64,000 nucleotides of DNA, from positions 101,909 through 165,908 of the forward strand of contig DAOPOS010000001.1 of the NCBI GenBank assembly GCA_035358035.1, written 5' to 3'. The translations under genes were made by a program, and so were the position numbers. The notes beneath the pieces are model-generated. The model was not told the DNA's origin. It was given only the letters and a program-made list of their open reading frames with translations, and did no database searches. This document shows positions 2,815-64,000 of this stretch, one piece after another (positions within the stretch are counted from its first letter, which is position 1; each line of letters opens with the position of its first letter). Origin of the DNA: Syntrophales bacterium (lineage in GTDB: Bacteria; Desulfobacterota; Syntrophia; Syntrophales; UBA2251).

Positions 2815-4032
2815 ATGGAGAAGAAAAAACAGCAGACCCGTTCACGCATCCTCGATGCCGCCGAGGCCCTCATCCTGGAGAGCAGCATCGAGGAGGTGAC
2901 GATTGCGAAGATCGCGGAGCGGGCCCAGGTAGCCGATTCCCTCGCCTACAAGTACTTCAAGGGCAAGAACGACATCATTTTTTCCGTGGTCGCCGAGCGA
3001 ACCCGCGAGGAAACCGCCCTTTTGCGCGAGCATCTCCAGGGCATCATCGACCCGAAATCCCGGTTGAGCAAGATGATCTGGCACATGCTGAAATACAACG
3101 ATTCGCATTCCAATCACGTGACGAATCTCCTCTTCCGGTGCCGGTCCAACAAGGACTTTTACCGATCCGAAGCGTATCGTCTGATGAAGGAATACGAAGC
3201 CATCCTCCTCAACATCCTCGAGGAGGGCGCCCGGGAGGGTGTGTTCCGGAGCGACATCGACATGAAGCTGATGAAGCACATCATCTTCGGAACGATCGAC
3301 ATCGAGGCCCTCAGCAGCATCGTCACCGGCGAAATCGAGAAGAGCTGCACGGATCTCGACGACATCATGGCCCTGCTCATCCCCATGCTGACAACGAAGG
3401 GCAAGCCCGCCGTGACGAACCGGCAGCAGGCGATCCTGCTCGCGGCGGAGAAGACCTTCGCCCGGCAGGGCTATGCCGACGCCAAGATCGCGGCCATCGC
3501 CGAGGAGGCCCAGGTGGCCGAAGGCACGATTTACGAATACTTTGCCGGCAAGGAAGACCTGCTGTTCGCCCTGTCCGGCAGGAACCTGAACGCCTATCTG
3601 GAAAGGGTTTCCAACATCTTCAACCCGCAGGCCGGCCCCTCCCCGCCGGAAAAATTATGGCGGCTGATGCGTTCCTTCGGTCTGAGCTTCCTGTCCATTC
3701 GGGACTTCATGACGGTCTACTTCATGTATACCCTGTTCAACCGCCGGTACTACCAGACCACCATCCAGCCGAAACAGAATGAATTCGCCCGGATGATGGG
3801 CCAGGTCATCGAGGAGGGCAAACAGGAAGGCACGTTTCGCGCGGACGTGAATCCGCGCGTCTTCTGGTATATGTTTCTGGGGTCCTACACCCACCTCGCC
3901 CTCCGCTGGATCATCATCGACCACAAGGAATTCGACAAGTACACGGAGGTCCGTCACCTGATGACCCTGATGATGACGGCCGCCCTCCGGGAACCCCCCA
4001 ACGTGGAATATCTGGTGCGAATCGAGTTCTGA
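2815..4032 (+). CDS. TetR/AcrR-family regulator with two tandem TetR units in one chain
   Basis: Two separate TetR N-terminal HTH signatures: RILDAAEALILESSIEEVTIAKIAERAQVADSLAYKYFKGKNDI and AILLAAEKTFARQGYADAKIAAIAEEAQVAEGTIYEYFAGKEDL. They lie about 200 aa apart, and each is followed by a helical ligand-domain-sized region. ATG at 2815 (MEKKKQ). Confidence 0.85.
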   Translation: MEKKKQQTRSRILDAAEALILESSIEEVTIAKIAERAQVADSLAYKYFKGKNDIIFSVVAERTREETALLREHLQGIIDPKSRLSKMIWHMLKYNDSHSNHVTNLLFRCRSNKDFYRSEAYRLMKEYEAILLNILEEGAREGVFRSDIDMKLMKHIIFGTIDIEALSSIVTGEIEKSCTDLDDIMALLIPMLTTKGKPAVTNRQQAILLAAEKTFARQGYADAKIAAIAEEAQVAEGTIYEYFAGKEDLLFALSGRNLNAYLERVSNIFNPQAGPSPPEKLWRLMRSFGLSFLSIRDFMTVYFMYTLFNRRYYQTTIQPKQNEFARMMGQVIEEGKQEGTFRADVNPRVFWYMFLGSYTHLALRWIIIDHKEFDKYTEVRHLMTLMMTAALREPPNVEYLVRIEF

Positions 4033-4354
4033 TTCCGCCCGCCTCCGGCCCCGACCGGGAGGACGTCCCACCGGCATCGCGACGCCCCGTCTCAGCGCGT
4101 GATATGACCGTCGGCCGTCGTTCCGGCTTCTGGCCCATTCCGTCGGACCCAAAGCACCGATCTCTTTCTTCAGAACCTGCTCCATGAGCTTCATTGTGTA
4201 TTATCACCTACGGTATTTTCATATACAATATCATTTCCATTTGACACCTAATCTATCTTATGCCAGGATTTTCTCAATCAGAAATCAAGAATGTGGGTCA
4301 TAGAAAGCCGCCGTTGGACGGCCTACACCATGTTGGGCACACCAAGGAGGAACC

Positions 4355-5759: not shown

Positions 5760-6143
5760 ATGGCACAACCACGGGCGTTTATCAGTTTCGAAATGGAAGA
5801 TAAATGGGCACGCGACTTCCTTGTTCAGCAGGCGAAGGACCGGAAGAACGATATTGCGTTCTACGATTATTCAGTGAAAGACCCCTTCGACTCCAAATGG
5901 AAGACGGAGTGCAGGAAGCGGATCGCGATGACGAAAGGCACCATCGTCTTGGTCGGCGAAACCACATGGAAATCTGAGGCCGTCCTGTGGGAGATCGCTG
6001 AGACAATTAGTCAAGACCACTATATCTTTGGAATCCAGATCAACAGGGACAAGACCCACACAATCCCCAAGGGCTTGCCCAGCCGGAACGTGATACGCTG
6101 GGATTTCGAGCAGATCGTAAAGTGGTTGAAAACATGGGTATGA
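5760..6143 (+). CDS. ThsB-type TIR-like protein (DUF1863 family)
   Basis: AFISFEMEDKWARDFL...GTIVLVGETTWKSEAVLWEIAETI...IFGIQI...VIRWDFEQIVKWL follows the DUF1863/MTH538 TIR-like pattern, including the W-E-I Glu. Confidence 0.85.
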   Translation: MAQPRAFISFEMEDKWARDFLVQQAKDRKNDIAFYDYSVKDPFDSKWKTECRKRIAMTKGTIVLVGETTWKSEAVLWEIAETISQDHYIFGIQINRDKTHTIPKGLPSRNVIRWDFEQIVKWLKTWV

Positions 6144-6149
6144 TCAGTC

Positions 6150-6983
6150 ATGTATCTTGACGACATTGCTTCACGAATCCGGTCACACATCCCAGATGAC
6201 CAGATGCCAGATGAGAACGCAGAGGAGCTGTTGCGCCTTTATGCAGTTCTTCTTCGCGCGAAGGGCACGGGCATTACGGAAAGCGATATCCATGACGCTT
6301 GGTCGGCGTGGATGTCCACACGTGACGAGTCTCATAAGGCTCTTGTCAATTATGAAGATCTCCCACCCGAAGTTCGCGACGCGGATAGTGTCTTCGCGAG
6401 TGCTGTCCGGAAAGCGGCTCAGGAGTTGGGACAAAGCAACGTGCTCCTCCCTGAGTTTGAAAGAATACTTTTCCCGTCGGGTCCCCCTGCCGATGTTGAA
6501 TCCACCCAACAGGCGCTGGATCTCTACAAAATCATGGTATCGAGTTCCGAGAGCTTGGTGAGCCGTCGTCAGGCGGTCAACACGTTCTTTTTGACAATGA
6601 ACGGTGCGCTTCTGACCGCCTTCGGAATTATTGTCAAGAGTTCTGGCGCAGATCAGCTAAGTGCTCTCGGTATCTTTGTCTTGGCTGTCGCCGGAGCGAT
6701 TCTCTGTGGGGCGTGGCGAAGTCTTATCACGTCATTCGGGCAATTGAATCGGGGCAAGTTCCAGGTGATCAACACGATCGAACGATACTTGAAGACAGCA
6801 ATATACAAAGCCGAGTGGGAAGCTCTCGGTCGCGGCGAGAACCCTAAGATATATAGATCTTTCACATCACGAGAGATATGGGTTCCGAATGCGCTTCTTG
6901 CGTTGCACGTTTTGGCAGCCATAGCCGCGCTTCTTGTGGCAATGGGATATGTCACCTGTGGAGCGGGAGGAGCTACGCCCTAA
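6150..6983 (+). CDS. Membrane protein with an unassigned helical N-domain and 3 predicted TM helices; candidate effector
   Basis: Starts 6 nt after the ThsB-like stop. Residues 1-~135 are soluble. Hydrophobic segments lie at about 143-162 (VNTFFLTMNGALLTAFGIIV), 170-192 and 243-267. I could not assign a family. Confidence 0.7.
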   Translation: MYLDDIASRIRSHIPDDQMPDENAEELLRLYAVLLRAKGTGITESDIHDAWSAWMSTRDESHKALVNYEDLPPEVRDADSVFASAVRKAAQELGQSNVLLPEFERILFPSGPPADVESTQQALDLYKIMVSSSESLVSRRQAVNTFFLTMNGALLTAFGIIVKSSGADQLSALGIFVLAVAGAILCGAWRSLITSFGQLNRGKFQVINTIERYLKTAIYKAEWEALGRGENPKIYRSFTSREIWVPNALLALHVLAAIAALLVAMGYVTCGAGGATP

Positions 6984-50715: not shown

Positions 50716-50773
50716 CGGCGTGAAGCTCCCGGCGGCACACCCCCCACCCTCGACCCAGGAGACGAGGTCCGGC

Positions 50774-51142
50774 ATGGAAAACGAAAAGACATCCCAGGAG
50801 CGGCGCCGGCAGATCGCCGCAACCTTTACCAAGAAGATCGCCCAGCGGCAGGCCATGCGCATCCGGGGCCAGAAGCAGAAGGACCGCATCGTCTGGTTCG
50901 GATTGGGGATGATCGGCGTCGTCGGCTGGTCGGTGGCGATTCCCACCCTGATCGGCGTGGCGCTCGGCCTGTGGATCGACCAGAACCTCCCGAGCCGCTT
51001 CTCCTGGACCCTGATGCTGCTGATCGCCGGCGTGACGGCCGGTTGCATGAACGCCTGGTACTGGGTGAAGCGGGGGGGCTACAACATCGAACACTTGAAC
51101 GGCGAAACGGACGAAGAGGAGACCCATGAGAAGCGCCGCTGA
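50774..51142 (+). CDS. atpQ: AtpQ (AtpZ/AtpI-like small membrane protein of N-ATPase operons)
   Basis: IVWFGLGMIGVVGWSVAIPTLIGVALGLWID...WTLMLLIAGVTAGCMNAWYWV matches the AtpZ/ATPase_gene1 pattern. Its position after atpC is diagnostic for N-ATPase operons. Confidence 0.7.
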   Translation: MENEKTSQERRRQIAATFTKKIAQRQAMRIRGQKQKDRIVWFGLGMIGVVGWSVAIPTLIGVALGLWIDQNLPSRFSWTLMLLIAGVTAGCMNAWYWVKRGGYNIEHLNGETDEEETHEKRR

Positions 51143-51428
51143 CCTCCTGCCGGCCTTCGCGGCCGGCCTGGCCCTGGGCGCCGTCTTTTTCGGCGGGCTC
51201 TGGTGGACCGTCCGCCGCCTCGTCGCCACGCCGAGGCCGTCCCGACTCCTTTGGCAGAGCTTCGCCCTCCGCTTCGTGATCGCGCTGGCGGGGTTCTACG
51301 CGGTGGCGAACGGACAGGGCGGACCGCTGGCGGTTGCGGTCCTGGGATTTCTCGTGATGCGCGAACTCATCGCGCGGCGCTTTTTCATCCGCGCGGATTC
51401 CTCGGGAGGCATGCCATGGAAGTCATGA
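51126..51428 (+). CDS. atpR: AtpR (N-ATPase-specific small membrane subunit)
   Basis: 100 aa with 3 hydrophobic helices and conserved Arg (FFGGLWWTVRRL). Lies between atpQ and atpB. Confidence 0.7.
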   Translation: MRSAADLLPAFAAGLALGAVFFGGLWWTVRRLVATPRPSRLLWQSFALRFVIALAGFYAVANGQGGPLAVAVLGFLVMRELIARRFFIRADSSGGMPWKS

Positions 51429-52159
51429 CGCTGCAGATGATCAGTCCCGACCAGATCGTCCTCTGGAAGTGGGCCTTCATCACCATCAACGCGACCCTGC
51501 TCTTCACCTGGCTGGTCATGGGGATCCTGGTCTGCGCCTCCTTTCTAATCACGCGGCGGCTGTCCGCGGGCACCCGGATCCCGCGCTGGCAGAACCTGCT
51601 GGAGGTCATCGTCGGGGCGATGCGCGAACAGATCCGGGAGGTGACCGAGGAGGACACGGACGAATACATGCCGTTCATCGGGACGATCTTCCTGTTCATC
51701 CTCACCTCGAACCTCCTGTTCATCATCCCCGGCTACGTGACGCCCACGGCATCCCTGACCACCACGGCGGCCCTGGCGGTCTGCGTTTTCCTGGCCGTGC
51801 CCATCTACGGCATCCGCAAGCAGGGGATCGTGAATTACCTCAAGGAGTACTTCCAGCCCATCTTCATCTTTTTCCCCTTTCACGTCATGGGCGAGTTTTC
51901 CCGCACCCTGGCGCTGGCCGTCCGGCTCTTCGGCAACATGATGAGCCACGAGAAGGTCATCGCGATCCTCCTGGCCATCACCCCCCTGCTCTTTCCGGTC
52001 GCCATGCACATCCTGGGGCTTCTGATCGGCGCTATCCAGGCCTACATCTTCGCGATCCTTGCGATGGTCTACATCGCCTCCGCCACGGGGGCGCACCACG
52101 AAAAGCAACCAAGCGCCGCGGTTCCGTCGGAAGCGGTCAAACTGGCTTCGGCCAAATAA
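51416..52159 (+). CDS. atpB: ATP synthase Fo subunit a
   Basis: Polytopic protein with the conserved Arg region LALAVRLFGNMMSHE. ATG at 51416 is in frame with track ORF 51203. Confidence 0.85.
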   Translation: MEVMTLQMISPDQIVLWKWAFITINATLLFTWLVMGILVCASFLITRRLSAGTRIPRWQNLLEVIVGAMREQIREVTEEDTDEYMPFIGTIFLFILTSNLLFIIPGYVTPTASLTTTAALAVCVFLAVPIYGIRKQGIVNYLKEYFQPIFIFFPFHVMGEFSRTLALAVRLFGNMMSHEKVIAILLAITPLLFPVAMHILGLLIGAIQAYIFAILAMVYIASATGAHHEKQPSAAVPSEAVKLASAK

Positions 52160-60385: not shown

Positions 60386-61348
60386 TCATCCGGCCGGGTC
60401 CTCCTTCTTTCCGGCCTCGTCGTCGATCACCATCTTCACGGGGTGCGGCAGGGCCAGCGAGGCGACGATCGACACCGCCAGCACCGCCGCGATGACGCCC
60501 AGGGAGAGTCCCACCGGAATCTTGACCCACTCCGTCAGGATCATCTTCACCCCGACGAAGGACAGGACCACCACCAGGCCGTAGCGCAGATAGTAGAACA
60601 GGCGCATCATCCCCGCCAGGGCGAAGAAGATCGACCTCAACCCCAGGATGGCGAACACGTTGGAGGTATAGACGATAAAGGGATCGGTGGTGATCGCCAG
60701 GACCGCCGGGATGGAGTCCACGGCGAAGATCACGTCCGTCGTCTCCAGGACGAGGACCACGGCGAACAGCGGCGTCGCCATCCACCGGCCCGCCTCCCGC
60801 ACGAAAAACCTCCCCCCGGCGTAATCGTTCGTTACCGGCATGACCTTGCGCAGGAGCTTGAGGGCGACGTTCCGGTCCGGGTGGACGTCCCCCTCCCCGC
60901 TCCGCGCCATCTTGACGGCGGTGAAGATGAGGAAGGCGCCGAAGACATAGATGATCCAGTGGAACTGCTCGATCAGGGCCACGCCGGCCGCGATGAACAC
61001 CGCCCGCATCACGAGCGCCCCGATGATCCCCCAGAACAGGGCCTTGTGCTCGTACTGCGGCGGGATGCCAAAGTACGAAAAGATCATGAGAAAGACGAAG
61101 AGGTTGTCTACGCTCAGGGACTCCTCAATGAGGTAGCCGGCGAGGAAGGCCAGGGCCTTCTCCGACCCCTTGACCCAATAGACGCCCAGGCAGAACAGCA
61201 TGGCGAGGCCGATCCAGAACGCCGTCCACAGCAGGGCTTCCCGGACCTTGATCACATGGGCCTTGCGGTTGAAGACGCCCAGATCCAGGGCCAGCATGAC
61301 GATCACGAAGGCAATGAAGATTCCCCAGTACAGCGTTTGTTCCGACAT
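60386..61348 (-). CDS. TerC-family integral membrane protein
   Basis: WTAFWIGLAMLF...YLIEESLSVDNLFVF...DVIFAVDSIPAV are the paired TerC motifs. Confidence 0.85.
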   Translation of the reverse strand: MSEQTLYWGIFIAFVIVMLALDLGVFNRKAHVIKVREALLWTAFWIGLAMLFCLGVYWVKGSEKALAFLAGYLIEESLSVDNLFVFLMIFSYFGIPPQYEHKALFWGIIGALVMRAVFIAAGVALIEQFHWIIYVFGAFLIFTAVKMARSGEGDVHPDRNVALKLLRKVMPVTNDYAGGRFFVREAGRWMATPLFAVVLVLETTDVIFAVDSIPAVLAITTDPFIVYTSNVFAILGLRSIFFALAGMMRLFYYLRYGLVVVLSFVGVKMILTEWVKIPVGLSLGVIAAVLAVSIVASLALPHPVKMVIDDEAGKKEDPAG

Positions 61349-61351
61349 CGA

Positions 61352-62683
61352 TCAGATTTTCCTTTGCAGTCTCTGGGCGGCGTGATGGATCACATCCCAG
61401 GCCCCGCCGAAGGGCGGGGCGTACGCGAGATCGAGCCAGCCGATCTCGTCCAGGGTCAGTCCGGACCACAGCGCCGCCGAGAGGGCGTTGATGCGGCCGA
61501 CCGCCCCCGTCTCCCCGATGGCCTGCGCGCCCAGCAGCTTGCCGTTTGCGCGGTCCGCCACGAGTTTCAGGCCGAGCTTCCGTTTTCCGAAGGGGCCGGC
61601 AATCGCGTTGCCCCAGAAGACGTCGCCGACGGGATCGAACCCCGCCTGCCGCGCCTCCGCCTCGTTCAGGCCCGTCGCCGCCGTTTCGAGCTCGAAGATC
61701 TTGAAGGACTGGGCCCCGACGACGCCCGGGTGCGCGGCGGGGCGGCCGCCGATGGTCCGGCCCGCCAGGCGGCCCTGCTTGTTGGCCGTATCGCCCAGGG
61801 GCAGATAGGCCCAGCGGCCGCTCACCCGGTGGTACACCTCGCAGCAGTCGCCGACGGCGTAAACGTTCGGGATCGATGTGCGCTGATGCGCGTCGACGCC
61901 GATCGCGCCCGTCGCGCCGATCCGGAGCCCCATGCCCCGGGCCAGGGCCACGTTCGGGGCGATGCCCACGGCCACGAGGACCAGGTCCGCCTCGATCGGT
62001 CCCCGGCTCGTCATCACCGTCAGCGGACAGGACGTTCCCGCCTCGATCCCGTGCAGCGCCGTATCCGCGAGAAAGGCCACGCCGTTCCGCTCCAGGGCGG
62101 CGACGATCTCCCGGGCGAGCTCGGCGTCCCAGCGCGCGACCGGCAGGTCGCCGCGATGGACGACCGTCGTCTCCATCCCGCGCTCGCGGAGGGCCTCGCA
62201 CATCTCCATGCCGATGAATCCCGCGCCGATGACCACGGCCTTGCGGCAGTCGCTCTGGTTCAGATGCGCCTTGATCCGGATGGCGTCCGCCAGGTTCTTC
62301 AGGAGGAAAACCCCCGGCAGGTCGAATCCCGGCCCCTCGGGAAGCCTCGGCTCGGCGCCGGTCGCCAGGACCAGCGCGTCGTAGGGCAGCAGTTCACCCG
62401 TGGTCAGCCGCGCGCGGCCCTGGGCGGCATCGACCGCCTCCACCGTCGACTCCAGGCGCACATCGATGCCCGCCTCCCGGAATTTTTCGGGCGTGCGGGC
62501 GACCAGCGTTTTTTCGTCCCTGATTACATCGCCGATGTAATAGGGCATCGGTCAGGCGGCATAGGACACGAACGCCCCCTGTTCGATCATCGTGATCTCC
62601 AGGGAGGGATCGTTCCGCTTGGCCTCCGCGGCCACGGATGGACCGGCCGCGCCCCCGCCGACAATGACGACCCGTTTCCCCAT
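61352..62683 (-). CDS. Pyridine nucleotide-disulfide oxidoreductase (CoA-disulfide reductase / NADH oxidase family) with in-frame TGA, probable selenocysteine at codon 44
   Basis: ATG at 62683 follows GGAGGTG. The N-terminus is MGKRVVIVGGGAAGPSVAAEAKR...FVSYAA-TGA(62554-62552)-PMPYYIG. The TGA aligns with the catalytic Cys of the SFANCGLPYYIG motif. The frame continues for 400 more codons (track ORF 61352..62548). Confidence 0.7.
62523..62541 (-). promoter_or_regulatory. Candidate bacterial SECIS hairpin
   Basis: mRNA AUUACAUC-GGC-GAUGUAAU forms an 8-bp stem starting 10 nt after the UGA, with a G-containing apical loop 19-21 nt downstream of the UGA. Confidence 0.45.
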
Positions 62684-62746
62684 CTTGCACCTCCGTCGGG
62701 TTTGTGGATGTTGACGGTCCCGCCGGTCCGCCCGGCCGGGCGCGAT

Positions 62747-63586
62747 CTATGTCACCGCCTGCGGCTTCCGGACGGCCAGGATCAGGCCTCCCGCGGCGAT
62801 CATGAGCAGGCACAGAAGCTGGCCCATGCTGAACAGTCCCAGGAACAGGCCGAGCTGCGCGTCCGGCTCCCGGAAATATTCGATCACGAAGCGCGCCGTC
62901 CCGTAGCCGATCACGTACAGGCCGAAGAGGAACCCGTCGAACGGGCTCCTCCGGCGGATCGCCCACAGGAGGAGGAACAGGAGAACCCCCTCGCCCAGGG
63001 CCTCGTAGAGCTGCGAGGGATGGCGGACGAGATGGTCGGCGTCGAGGGGGAAGATCATGCCCCAGGGGACGTCGGTCGCCCGGCCGTAGAGTTCCCCGTT
63101 GATGAAGTTTCCGATGCGGCCGAAGGTATAGCCCAGCGGGATCGCCGGGGCGAACAGGTCCGCCCAGTTCCAGAAATCCGCGCCCTGCCTCCGGCAGAAG
63201 AGCGCCGTCGCGACGATCACGCCGATCGCCCCGCCGTGGTAGGACATCCCGCTGATCCCGACGAAGCGGATGCCGTTCGTGAACTCGAACGGCAGGAGAA
63301 TCTCCAGGGGGTGCCCGAGGTAATAGCTGAAATTGTAGAAGAGGACATAGCCCAGGCGCGCCCCCAGGATGAGGCCGAAGATCGCCCACACGAAGTAGTC
63401 CTGCACCTGCTCGATGCGGTACGGATAGCCCTCCCGGCCGATCCGGCGACGGACCAGGAGGTACGTCACGCCGAAGGCCACCAGGTACATCAGGCTGTAA
63501 TACCGGAGTTGAAAACTGCCGATCTCCAGGAGGTTCGGACTGAGATGGAAGGGGAGGTACCGCCAGGATTCGAGGAGAGTCGCCAT
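62747..63586 (-). CDS. lgt: Prolipoprotein diacylglyceryl transferase
   Basis: YYSLMYLVAF, GMSYHGGAIG and FGRIGNFINGELYGR. Confidence 0.9.
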   Translation of the reverse strand: MATLLESWRYLPFHLSPNLLEIGSFQLRYYSLMYLVAFGVTYLLVRRRIGREGYPYRIEQVQDYFVWAIFGLILGARLGYVLFYNFSYYLGHPLEILLPFEFTNGIRFVGISGMSYHGGAIGVIVATALFCRRQGADFWNWADLFAPAIPLGYTFGRIGNFINGELYGRATDVPWGMIFPLDADHLVRHPSQLYEALGEGVLLFLLLWAIRRRSPFDGFLFGLYVIGYGTARFVIEYFREPDAQLGLFLGLFSMGQLLCLLMIAAGGLILAVRKPQAVT

Positions 63587-63588
63587 GC

Positions 63589-64000
63589 TCAGTAGGCCTC
63601 TCCCTTAAGATCTTCGACGTACAGCTGGGCGGCGTAGGCGGCGGTGGCGCCGTCGCCGCAGGCCGTGATCACCTGCCGGAGCAGTTTCTGAATGCAATCG
63701 CCGCAGGCGAAGATCCCCGGGACGGAGGTCCGCATGTCCGGATCGACCCGGACATACCCGTTCGGATCGCGGTCCGCGATGCCGGCCAGGAGGTCCGTGT
63801 TCGGCGTCAGCCCGATGAAGACGAAAACCCCTTCCGCCGGAATGACGCGGATCTCGTCGGGGTTCCGGACGTTCCGGATGCGGATCCCCTCCACGAAGTC
63901 CTTCCCCTCGACCGCCTGGACGACGCTGTCCCAGGCGAAGGCGATCTTCGGATGGGCAAAGGCGCGCTCGGGCAGGACGCCCGCCGCCCGCAGCCGCTCC
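63589..64000 (-). CDS. trxB: Thioredoxin-disulfide-reductase-like flavoprotein, C-terminal part (5' end beyond the window)
   Basis: GVFVFIGLTPNT...TSVPGIFACGDC...QVITACGDGATAA. The frame stays open to the window edge (..HPKIAFAWDSVVQAVEG..). Confidence 0.8.
   Translation of the reverse strand, partial: ERLRAAGVLPERAFAHPKIAFAWDSVVQAVEGKDFVEGIRIRNVRNPDEIRVIPAEGVFVFIGLTPNTDLLAGIADRDPNGYVRVDPDMRTSVPGIFACGDCIQKLLRQVITACGDGATAAYAAQLYVEDLKGEAY

Follow-up and report, generated by a model that had tools for sequence, protein, structure and literature searches.

An 'NADH oxidase' selenoprotein was listed in Geobacter metallireducens by Zhang et al. in 2006 (PMC1794560), and the family appears again in reviews of 2022 and 2026 (PMC9312934, PMC13188914). 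The 2006 census recorded it in a single genome and not among the selenoproteins of Syntrophus aciditrophicus (PMC1794560), and the 2026 review gives, for the flavin adenine dinucleotide (FAD)-dependent oxidoreductase of the coenzyme A (CoA)-disulfide reductase (CoADR)/NADH oxidase type, the selenocysteine (Sec) motif UGxP, the family model TIGR03385 and the exemplar WP_011365774.1 (PMC13188914). Here we describe a related gene in a 64-kb stretch of DNA from a Syntrophales bacterium (contig DAOPOS010000001.1), called the window below, which amounts to about 2% of a genome. On its minus strand, positions 62683-61352 very probably constitute a single gene with a product of 443 residues, an FAD-dependent pyridine-nucleotide-disulfide oxidoreductase of the CoADR/NADH-oxidase/persulfide-reductase type, in which a UGA-encoded Sec replaces the single redox-active Cys. 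A first-pass annotation, made from the letters alone, had proposed a probable selenoprotein mis-split by open reading frame (ORF) calling and had suspected that the family was already known. The family is indeed the one catalogued in G. metallireducens, and the selenoprotein reading is supported by the alignment of the UGA with Cys, by selection on both of its flanks and by conservation of a hairpin downstream of it. We infer Sec insertion at the UGA, and the chemistry of the enzyme, from sequence. The G. metallireducens and window proteins share their superfamily, TIGR03385 as best model, one Sec per protein (proposed in the window) and an origin in the former Deltaproteobacteria, and both motifs begin with U, which is what replacement of the active-site Cys by Sec would give.

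An in-frame UGA at the redox-active cysteine position

The elements of the gene are the following, all on the minus strand.

61352 to 62683, minus strand: complete gene of the proposed selenoprotein, with the putative Sec at residue 44 (443 residues plus stop, one internal TGA)
62688 to 62694, minus strand: Shine-Dalgarno-like GGAGGTG (direct reading)
62555 to 62683, minus strand: first 43 codons, which encode the initial beta-alpha-beta of the FAD-binding Rossmann fold, with GGGAAG (translation, purifying selection)
62552 to 62554, minus strand: in-frame UGA, proposed Sec44 codon (aligns with the redox-active Cys)
62518 to 62545, minus strand: hairpin resembling a selenocysteine insertion sequence (SECIS), including a lower extension specific to the window (folding, conservation)

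The Shine-Dalgarno-like GGAGGTG (62694-62688) lies 4 nt 5' of an ATG at 62683-62681, from which a frame of 444 codons, final stop included, is interrupted by just one internal stop. The 43 codons preceding this internal stop encode MGKRVVIVGGGAAGPSVAAEAKRNDPSLEITMIEQGAFVSYAA, with the GGGAAG motif of the FAD-binding fold. The TGA at 62554-62552 is followed by P-MPYYIGD (PMPYYIGDVIRDE), and the frame continues unbroken to the stop TGA at 61354-61352. The ribosome-binding site, start codon, FAD fold and TGA with its following PMPYYIG were thus found on the sequence and in the translation exactly where the first-pass annotation had placed them. A mechanical ORF list splits the gene into a 43-aa ORF (62552..62683) and a 398-aa ORF (61352..62548), the second beginning at the Met two codons past the TGA (TGA-CCG-ATG). 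As had been anticipated for standard pipelines, GenBank also misses the whole gene and has two separate records for it: an 'FAD-dependent oxidoreductase' of 398 aa (HOD27711.1) and a 'lycopene cyclase family protein' of 43 aa (HOD27712.1). The latter name, given to HOD27712.1 and to further records of the 43-aa fragment (51 contigs), is a propagated misannotation that arises from a weak Pfam match to the FAD-binding start. Without the 43 N-terminal codons the downstream ORF would miss the first beta-alpha-beta of the GxGxxG FAD fold. An identical gene with the same TGA is present on at least six independent assemblies.

For profile searches of the 443-aa protein, Cys was substituted at the TGA. 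Pfam returned Pyr_redox_2 (5e-59), together with Pyr_redox and Pyr_redox_dim, and the top NCBIfam model was the CoA-disulfide reductase TIGR03385 (E 4e-114, 381.8 bits, residues 4-433). Judged from sequence, the protein belongs to the CoADR/NADH oxidase/persulfide reductase group (COG0446), an assignment made at the level of the group. The solved structures matched were as follows.

6ruz: NADH oxidase (Thermus), E 1e-89
6pfz: NADH oxidase (NoxA-3), E 3.5e-78
5l1n, 4fx9 and 3kd9: coenzyme A disulfide reductase (Pyrococcus), E about 1e-77 to 1e-78
3cgb: B. anthracis CoADR, E about 6e-78
3nta and 3ntd: Shewanella Npsr, E about 3e-76

Solved Cys-type enzymes (6ruz, 4fx9/5l1n/3kd9, 3nta/3ntd, 3cgb/3icr, 1yqz and 1joa) are homologous to the window protein over its full length (E 1e-89 to 4e-57) and share its three-domain layout, and the UGA falls on their single redox-active Cys; they differ in having Cys where the window gene has the proposed Sec. 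Npsr and CoADR-RHD carry a rhodanese domain, whereas the window protein has none. An N-terminal alignment placed the TGA in the column of the Cys that belongs to the peptides YVSFANCGLPYHIS in Npsr (residue 43) and YISFANCGLPYYIG in CoADR-RHD, and ungapped offsets placed it at Cys43 in the S. aureus CoADR 1yqz and at Cys42 in the E. faecalis NADH peroxidase 1joa. These Cys are the redox-active residues of the enzymes concerned. The peptide VSYAAC-PMPYYIGD, or a close variant, was found in 14/14 aligned full-length homologues with its Cys exactly at the TGA column. The claim that the TGA takes the place of exactly the catalytic Cys therefore stands, on these homologues and on the solved CoADR, Npsr and Npx enzymes. 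As a separate observation, the window protein contains a Cys280-Cys281 pair in GDCCE (61841-61846, minus strand); among 20 aligned homologues C280 is invariant and C281 nearly so, whereas 6ruz, the closest solved structure, has Val-Ala at this position.

The conservation of the TGA was followed in a genome scan with one genome per species, from which the best 80 of 320 relatives were taken. All 80 loci come from Syntrophales, Smithella or 'Deltaproteobacteria' metagenome-assembled genomes (MAGs). The codon at the catalytic column is TGA in about 70 of them and TGT or TGC in six; since these are the closest 80 of 320 relatives, the ratio of TGA to Cys is not descriptive of the whole family. Among the 120 protein matches listed, 114 are of the Cys type, including a large Smithella-like block. 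The full-length homologues found by protein search are 55-62% identical to the window protein, and entries of 398-399 aa that start at MPYYIG reach 91% (P0001), 84% (P0002) and 63% (P0073, P0087 and P0098). The DNA of these truncated entries contains an intact 43-codon ORF and the TGA in the same frame. The lead of the Cys forms in the protein search is due solely to the truncation of Sec forms by gene callers. The idea that 'C' residues in the database are U in disguise was rejected, as the DNA of several Cys forms has TGT or TGC.

The genome set yielded 77 unique TGA-type coding sequences, 56-100% identical to the window at the protein level and free of further stops. Their differences from the window, counted by codon position, were distributed 671:472:1861 within the N-terminal 43 codons and 9008:6951:16162 downstream of codon 60. 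The dominance of third-position divergence upstream of the TGA indicates that the upstream segment is translated in this frame and that the gene is not a decaying pseudogene; both flanks of the TGA are under purifying selection. Decay of the N-terminal 43 codons in orthologues, which would have pointed to a true pseudogene, was not seen in any of the 77 genes. The window and all 77 share the motif U-P-x-P (U-P-M/T/L-P), and the TGA is kept in 111 unique metagenome sequences. The least tenable explanation, that the gene is a pseudogene or that the TGA arose from faulty sequencing or assembly, can draw on the single substitution that separates TGA from TGT/TGC and on the existence of Cys-type relatives, but it is practically negligible given the same TGA in the independent assemblies, the 77 genome genes and the 111 metagenome sequences, with no extra stops or frameshifts and with selection on both flanks.

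A conserved hairpin downstream of the UGA

The first-pass annotation had described an 8-bp hairpin with a G-rich loop starting 10 nt after the UGA, at the position expected for a bacterial SECIS. The hairpin is present, and its stem begins at the 11th nt after the UGA. The core, on the minus strand, consists of a 5' arm AUUACAUC (62541-62534), a GGC loop (62533-62531) and a 3' arm GAUGUAAU (62530-62523), forming 8 bp. In the window the stem is extended at its base by CCCU (62545-62542) pairing with AGGG (62521-62518). Taken alone, the hairpin folds with -13.2 kcal/mol (z = -4.1), and 0/200 shuffles fold as well.

Synonymous sites indicated that the hairpin is under RNA-level constraint. Of the alignment columns, 116 have a conserved amino acid with degenerate codons; in these the third-position major-allele frequency averages 0.59, and only six columns reach at least 0.90. 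Five of these six are codons 48 (TAT), 49 (TAC), 50 (ATC), 52 (GAT) and 53 (GTA), which are exactly the two stem arms; at codon 51 (GGN), in the loop, the corresponding value is 0.47. Val53 is fixed as GTA despite the 65% G+C content of the genome. A hypergeometric estimate puts the probability that five of six fixed columns coincide with five codons named in advance at about 4e-8. Every one of the eight stem pairs is intact in 72/72 unique segments, in which the only changes to the stem are one double compensatory change of C-G to U-A (L080, where it also changes Val to Ile) and one change of U-A to U-G (L048). RNAalifold gives the same stem.

Metagenome contigs, independent of the genome set, were scanned with the pattern A-[U/C]-P-x-P-Y-Y-I-G-D-x-I, which admitted every synonymous codon. 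The scan returned 113 unique matches, 111 of them with TGA, and the eight pairs are formed in 111/111. The arms are canonical in 108 of these sequences and carry a single wobble variant in three, and all four nucleotides occur at the third loop base. The two Cys matches have one broken pair each (2/2). Cys-type genes mostly lack the 3' arm, with GTC, GCC, ATA, ATG or TAT at codon 53 and GAC or AAT at codon 52, and the hairpin is gone in the Cys-type loci L019, L029, L046, L057, L095 and L096. Two Cys-type genes, L084 (TGC) and L094 (TGT, at 6132-6176), retain it with 8/8 pairs or with seven pairs and one G-U, which suggests a recent replacement of Sec by Cys. The hairpin thus accompanies the TGA among orthologues, as the first-pass annotation had required of a selenoprotein, and is missing from most Cys-type genes.

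The geometry can be compared with that of E. coli fdhF (NC_000913.3), in which the first in-frame stop is a TGA at codon 140 and the predicted GGUC loop starts 21 nt after the U of this codon. In the fdhF SECIS (Sec140), as in the window, the hairpin is part of the coding sequence and directly follows the UGA on its 3' side, and the loop is at +21 and starts with GG. The position foreseen for a bacterial SECIS is therefore the one occupied. Two loop-initial G/U residues of the fdhF element contact SelB. The fdhF loop has 4 nt (GGUC), whereas that of the window has 3 nt (GGN), and the perfect 8-bp A/U-rich helix of the window's upper stem is unlike the fdhF stem; the two share no sequence similarity.

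On the proposed mechanism, a ribosome reaching the UGA would meet the hairpin 11 nt downstream, the GGN apical loop of which would be offered to SelB·GTP·Sec-tRNASec, and SelB would deliver Sec in competition with release factor 2. By analogy with the enzyme family, NAD(P)H would then reduce FAD, and FAD would reduce the selenenyl-sulfide of Sec44 (with CoA, another thiol or persulfide) or its selenenic acid. The regenerated selenolate would attack a disulfide, persulfide or peroxide substrate.

Weighing the selenocysteine reading against other decodings

Several observations weigh against the reading of the gene as a selenoprotein of the catalogued family. At the protein level, the CoADR (EC 1.8.1.14) models score under their equivalog cut-offs (TIGR03385, 381.8 against 578.8; NF007123, 367.4 against 458; NF010037, 215.2 against 394), as does the H2O-forming NADH oxidase model NF046103 (238.2 against 600). 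The motif here is UPxP, whereas that of the catalogued family is UGxP, the Geobacter protein being compared by family model and tabulated motif. At the RNA level, a wider stretch of 66 nt folds unexceptionally (z = -0.88), the stem is short and A/U-rich with a family mean of -6.4 kcal/mol, and a 400-nt region gave no Rfam family for the hairpin, only matches at chance level. The near-invariance of the stem leaves little classical covariation to support it. A possible 3-bp lower stem, in which +10..+12 would pair with +34..+36, is not convincingly conserved, with a C·A mismatch at +11/+35 in 42/156 unique TGA-type sequences. The third positions of this lower stem, Pro47 (CCC/CCU) against Lys55 (AAG/AAA), are associated (Fisher p = 0.0014), and a control pair is as well (p = 0.006). 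Another register of the stem extension, from +12/+32 onward, was rejected as wrong. Finally, tblastn with E. coli queries found no SelA, SelB or SelD homologue in the window or the related loci, and no tRNA-Sec was detected by ARAGORN, applied to the window and to 1.53 Mb of gene flanks from related loci; as these searches covered the window and 0.77-1.5 Mb of gene flanks, the absence of sel genes from them is uninformative either way. Published support for the Sec machinery is at order level: 19 selenoproteins, SelD among them, are listed for S. aciditrophicus (PMC1794560), and complete selA/B/C/D sets are reported for a group of genomes, described below, to which a composite Smithella genome belongs (PMC5389517).

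Two of the alternatives involve Cys. Mukai et al. reported selC* genes, which encode a tRNA-Cys(UCA) shaped like tRNA-Sec, in delta-proteobacteria including a composite Smithella genome, found a second selB beside selC* in Syntrophobacterales and Desulfobacterales, and showed opal suppression with Cys in E. coli (PMC5389517). Homologues of the window gene occur in Smithella-type genomes. Dual coding, in which Syntrophales would insert Sec when selenium is available and otherwise Cys through selC* with SelB or its paralogue SelB*, appears to us an outside chance. If it were true, the family would lend itself naturally to the study of conditional Sec/Cys recoding, with its two paralogous Sec clades, a nearly invariant SECIS within the active-site residues PYYIGDVI, and at least about 15 switches between Sec and Cys on a rough tree. 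That the UGA and hairpin are read as Cys alone, by the same tRNA through SelB or SelB*, is very unlikely. Neither the window nor the 1.53 Mb of related loci yielded a selC* tRNA, and every genome with selC*, the composite Smithella genome included, has a complete selA/B/C/D set, so Sec insertion stays available (PMC5389517). It is also hard to explain why a costly UGA and SECIS should be maintained across more than 150 unique sequences just for Cys, when TGT and TGC are equivalent and have arisen repeatedly.

We hold it to be most improbable that the gene is truly split, with translation ending at the TGA and resuming at the ATG 3 nt further on, so that a peptide of 43 aa and a protein of 398 aa would result and possibly reassemble. 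An ATG two codons past the TGA is present in the window and in 63/78 unique TGA-type genes, and databases keep the two products apart. The other 15/78, however, have ACG, ACA, ACT, ACC or CTC at the restart codon, with the next in-frame start 16-115 codons further on, and the 398-aa product would have neither the GxGxxG beta-alpha-beta nor the catalytic residue. Reinitiation also leaves unexplained the fixed synonymous sites in a hairpin of SECIS geometry and the position of the stop exactly on the catalytic Cys column.

Equally improbable is that UGA is reassigned genome-wide (codes 4 and 25) or leaky through a near-cognate tRNA (Trp, Cys or Arg), the hairpin being a generic stimulator of read-through. 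A C follows the UGA in every TGA-type sequence, and UGA-C is a weak termination context in E. coli, which would suit a leaky stop. On the other hand, TGA is the commonest stop of 24 neighbouring genes (12/24) and ends the window gene itself, which argues against reassignment. The loop GG at +21/+22 fits the SelB-binding geometry of fdhF, and the pairing of Sec and Cys forms at a redox-active site is the classical signature of a selenoprotein. Insertion of Sec at the UGA is accordingly the reading that we retain for what follows.

Genomic context, paralogues and significance

The genes adjoining the proposed selenoprotein gene are the following.

62747 to 63586, minus strand: lgt, prolipoprotein diacylglyceryl transferase (Pfam LGT), directly upstream and a conserved neighbour in the clade of the window gene (clade A)
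63589 to 64000, minus strand: thioredoxin-reductase-like gene, truncated by the end of the window so that its 3' part is included (the complete protein has a CATC motif)
60386 to 61348, minus strand: terC-family membrane protein gene (Pfam TerC), directly downstream

The gene order is trxB-like (CATC), lgt, selenoprotein gene and terC, followed by ykuD-like, spoU, cutA and glk. The TrxB-like gene noted in the first-pass annotation as two genes away is thus located upstream. The start codon of terC begins 4 nt past the stop of the selenoprotein gene, and for this reason the two are probably co-transcribed. The neighbours recur among the 80 loci with the following frequencies.

lgt, upstream: 45/80 loci
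trxB-like, two genes upstream: 39/80 loci
terC, directly downstream: 19/80 loci
spoU: 28/80 loci

On the same contig, beyond the window end at 64000 and upstream of the trxB-like gene (L001, 1-7770), there is an ADP-forming acetyl-CoA-synthetase-like gene, together with a cluster of five or six CoA-transferase genes and an amidohydrolase gene. This CoA-centred neighbourhood may be relevant to a CoA-linked substrate.

A second paralogous clade, also of the TGA type with the same hairpin, comprises about 30 other loci (among them L031, L033-L035, L037-L039, L048, L050-L054, L058-L065, L070 and L089, with the gene at about 3001-4332 in each, and L094 and L095). Its upstream neighbour, 17-70 nt away, is a gene for a C_GCAxxG_C_C (PF09719) 'putative redox-active protein', and downstream lie an ORF of about 108 aa and an HpaB-family gene (about 90% identical). 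A C_GCAxxG_C_C gene is also found directly upstream in the clade A loci L007, L016 and L017. This recurrence hints that the C_GCAxxG_C_C protein is a functional partner of the enzyme, and it may be its redox partner or substrate. Both paralogues occur in one MAG, LacPavin_0920_SED1_MAG_53_19 (L017 and L038), each with the TGA and the SECIS-like hairpin. When 191 sequences were clustered by the unweighted pair group method with arithmetic mean (UPGMA) and analysed by Fitch parsimony, Sec and Cys forms interleaved, with at least 15 changes of state and Sec at the root; given these methods, both the count and the root state are rough.

The window was also scanned for in-frame TGA codons, with codon-position GC filters, in search of a second selenoprotein. 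One candidate, at 50720-52159 (plus strand), joins an AtpR/AtpI-like ORF and an ATP synthase a-subunit in one frame; it was rejected, as the spacer is junk and the genes are merely adjacent. The other extra match was the stop of the selenoprotein gene itself running into terC. The order AtpR-a-c-b-alpha-gamma at about 50.7-55.8 kb (L001, 15.9-21.2 kb) looks like an N-ATPase-type operon.

In an incomplete search of the literature we found no paper describing the Syntrophales/Smithella clade, and the Syntrophales group represents a further member, and perhaps a sub-family, of a known kind of selenoprotein. It differs from what was catalogued in the UPxP motif, the dominance of the Sec form in two Syntrophales clades, the near-invariant SECIS and the split public records. 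The Sec form dominates the closest 80 of 320 genome homologues, in two paralogous clades, whereas the 2006 census had it in one genome (PMC1794560). The finding is no new kind of biology, since the selenoprotein family is catalogued and Sec in place of Cys at a redox-active site is the standard pattern. It provides a very clean bacterial SECIS, located in synonymous sites of an active-site motif, which could help to train SECIS predictors. It also corrects the annotation of a widespread gene of syntrophic anaerobes from digesters, peat and sediments, which is split in GenBank, IMG and other collections, and it would add one or two selenoproteins per genome to the selenoproteomes of Syntrophales.

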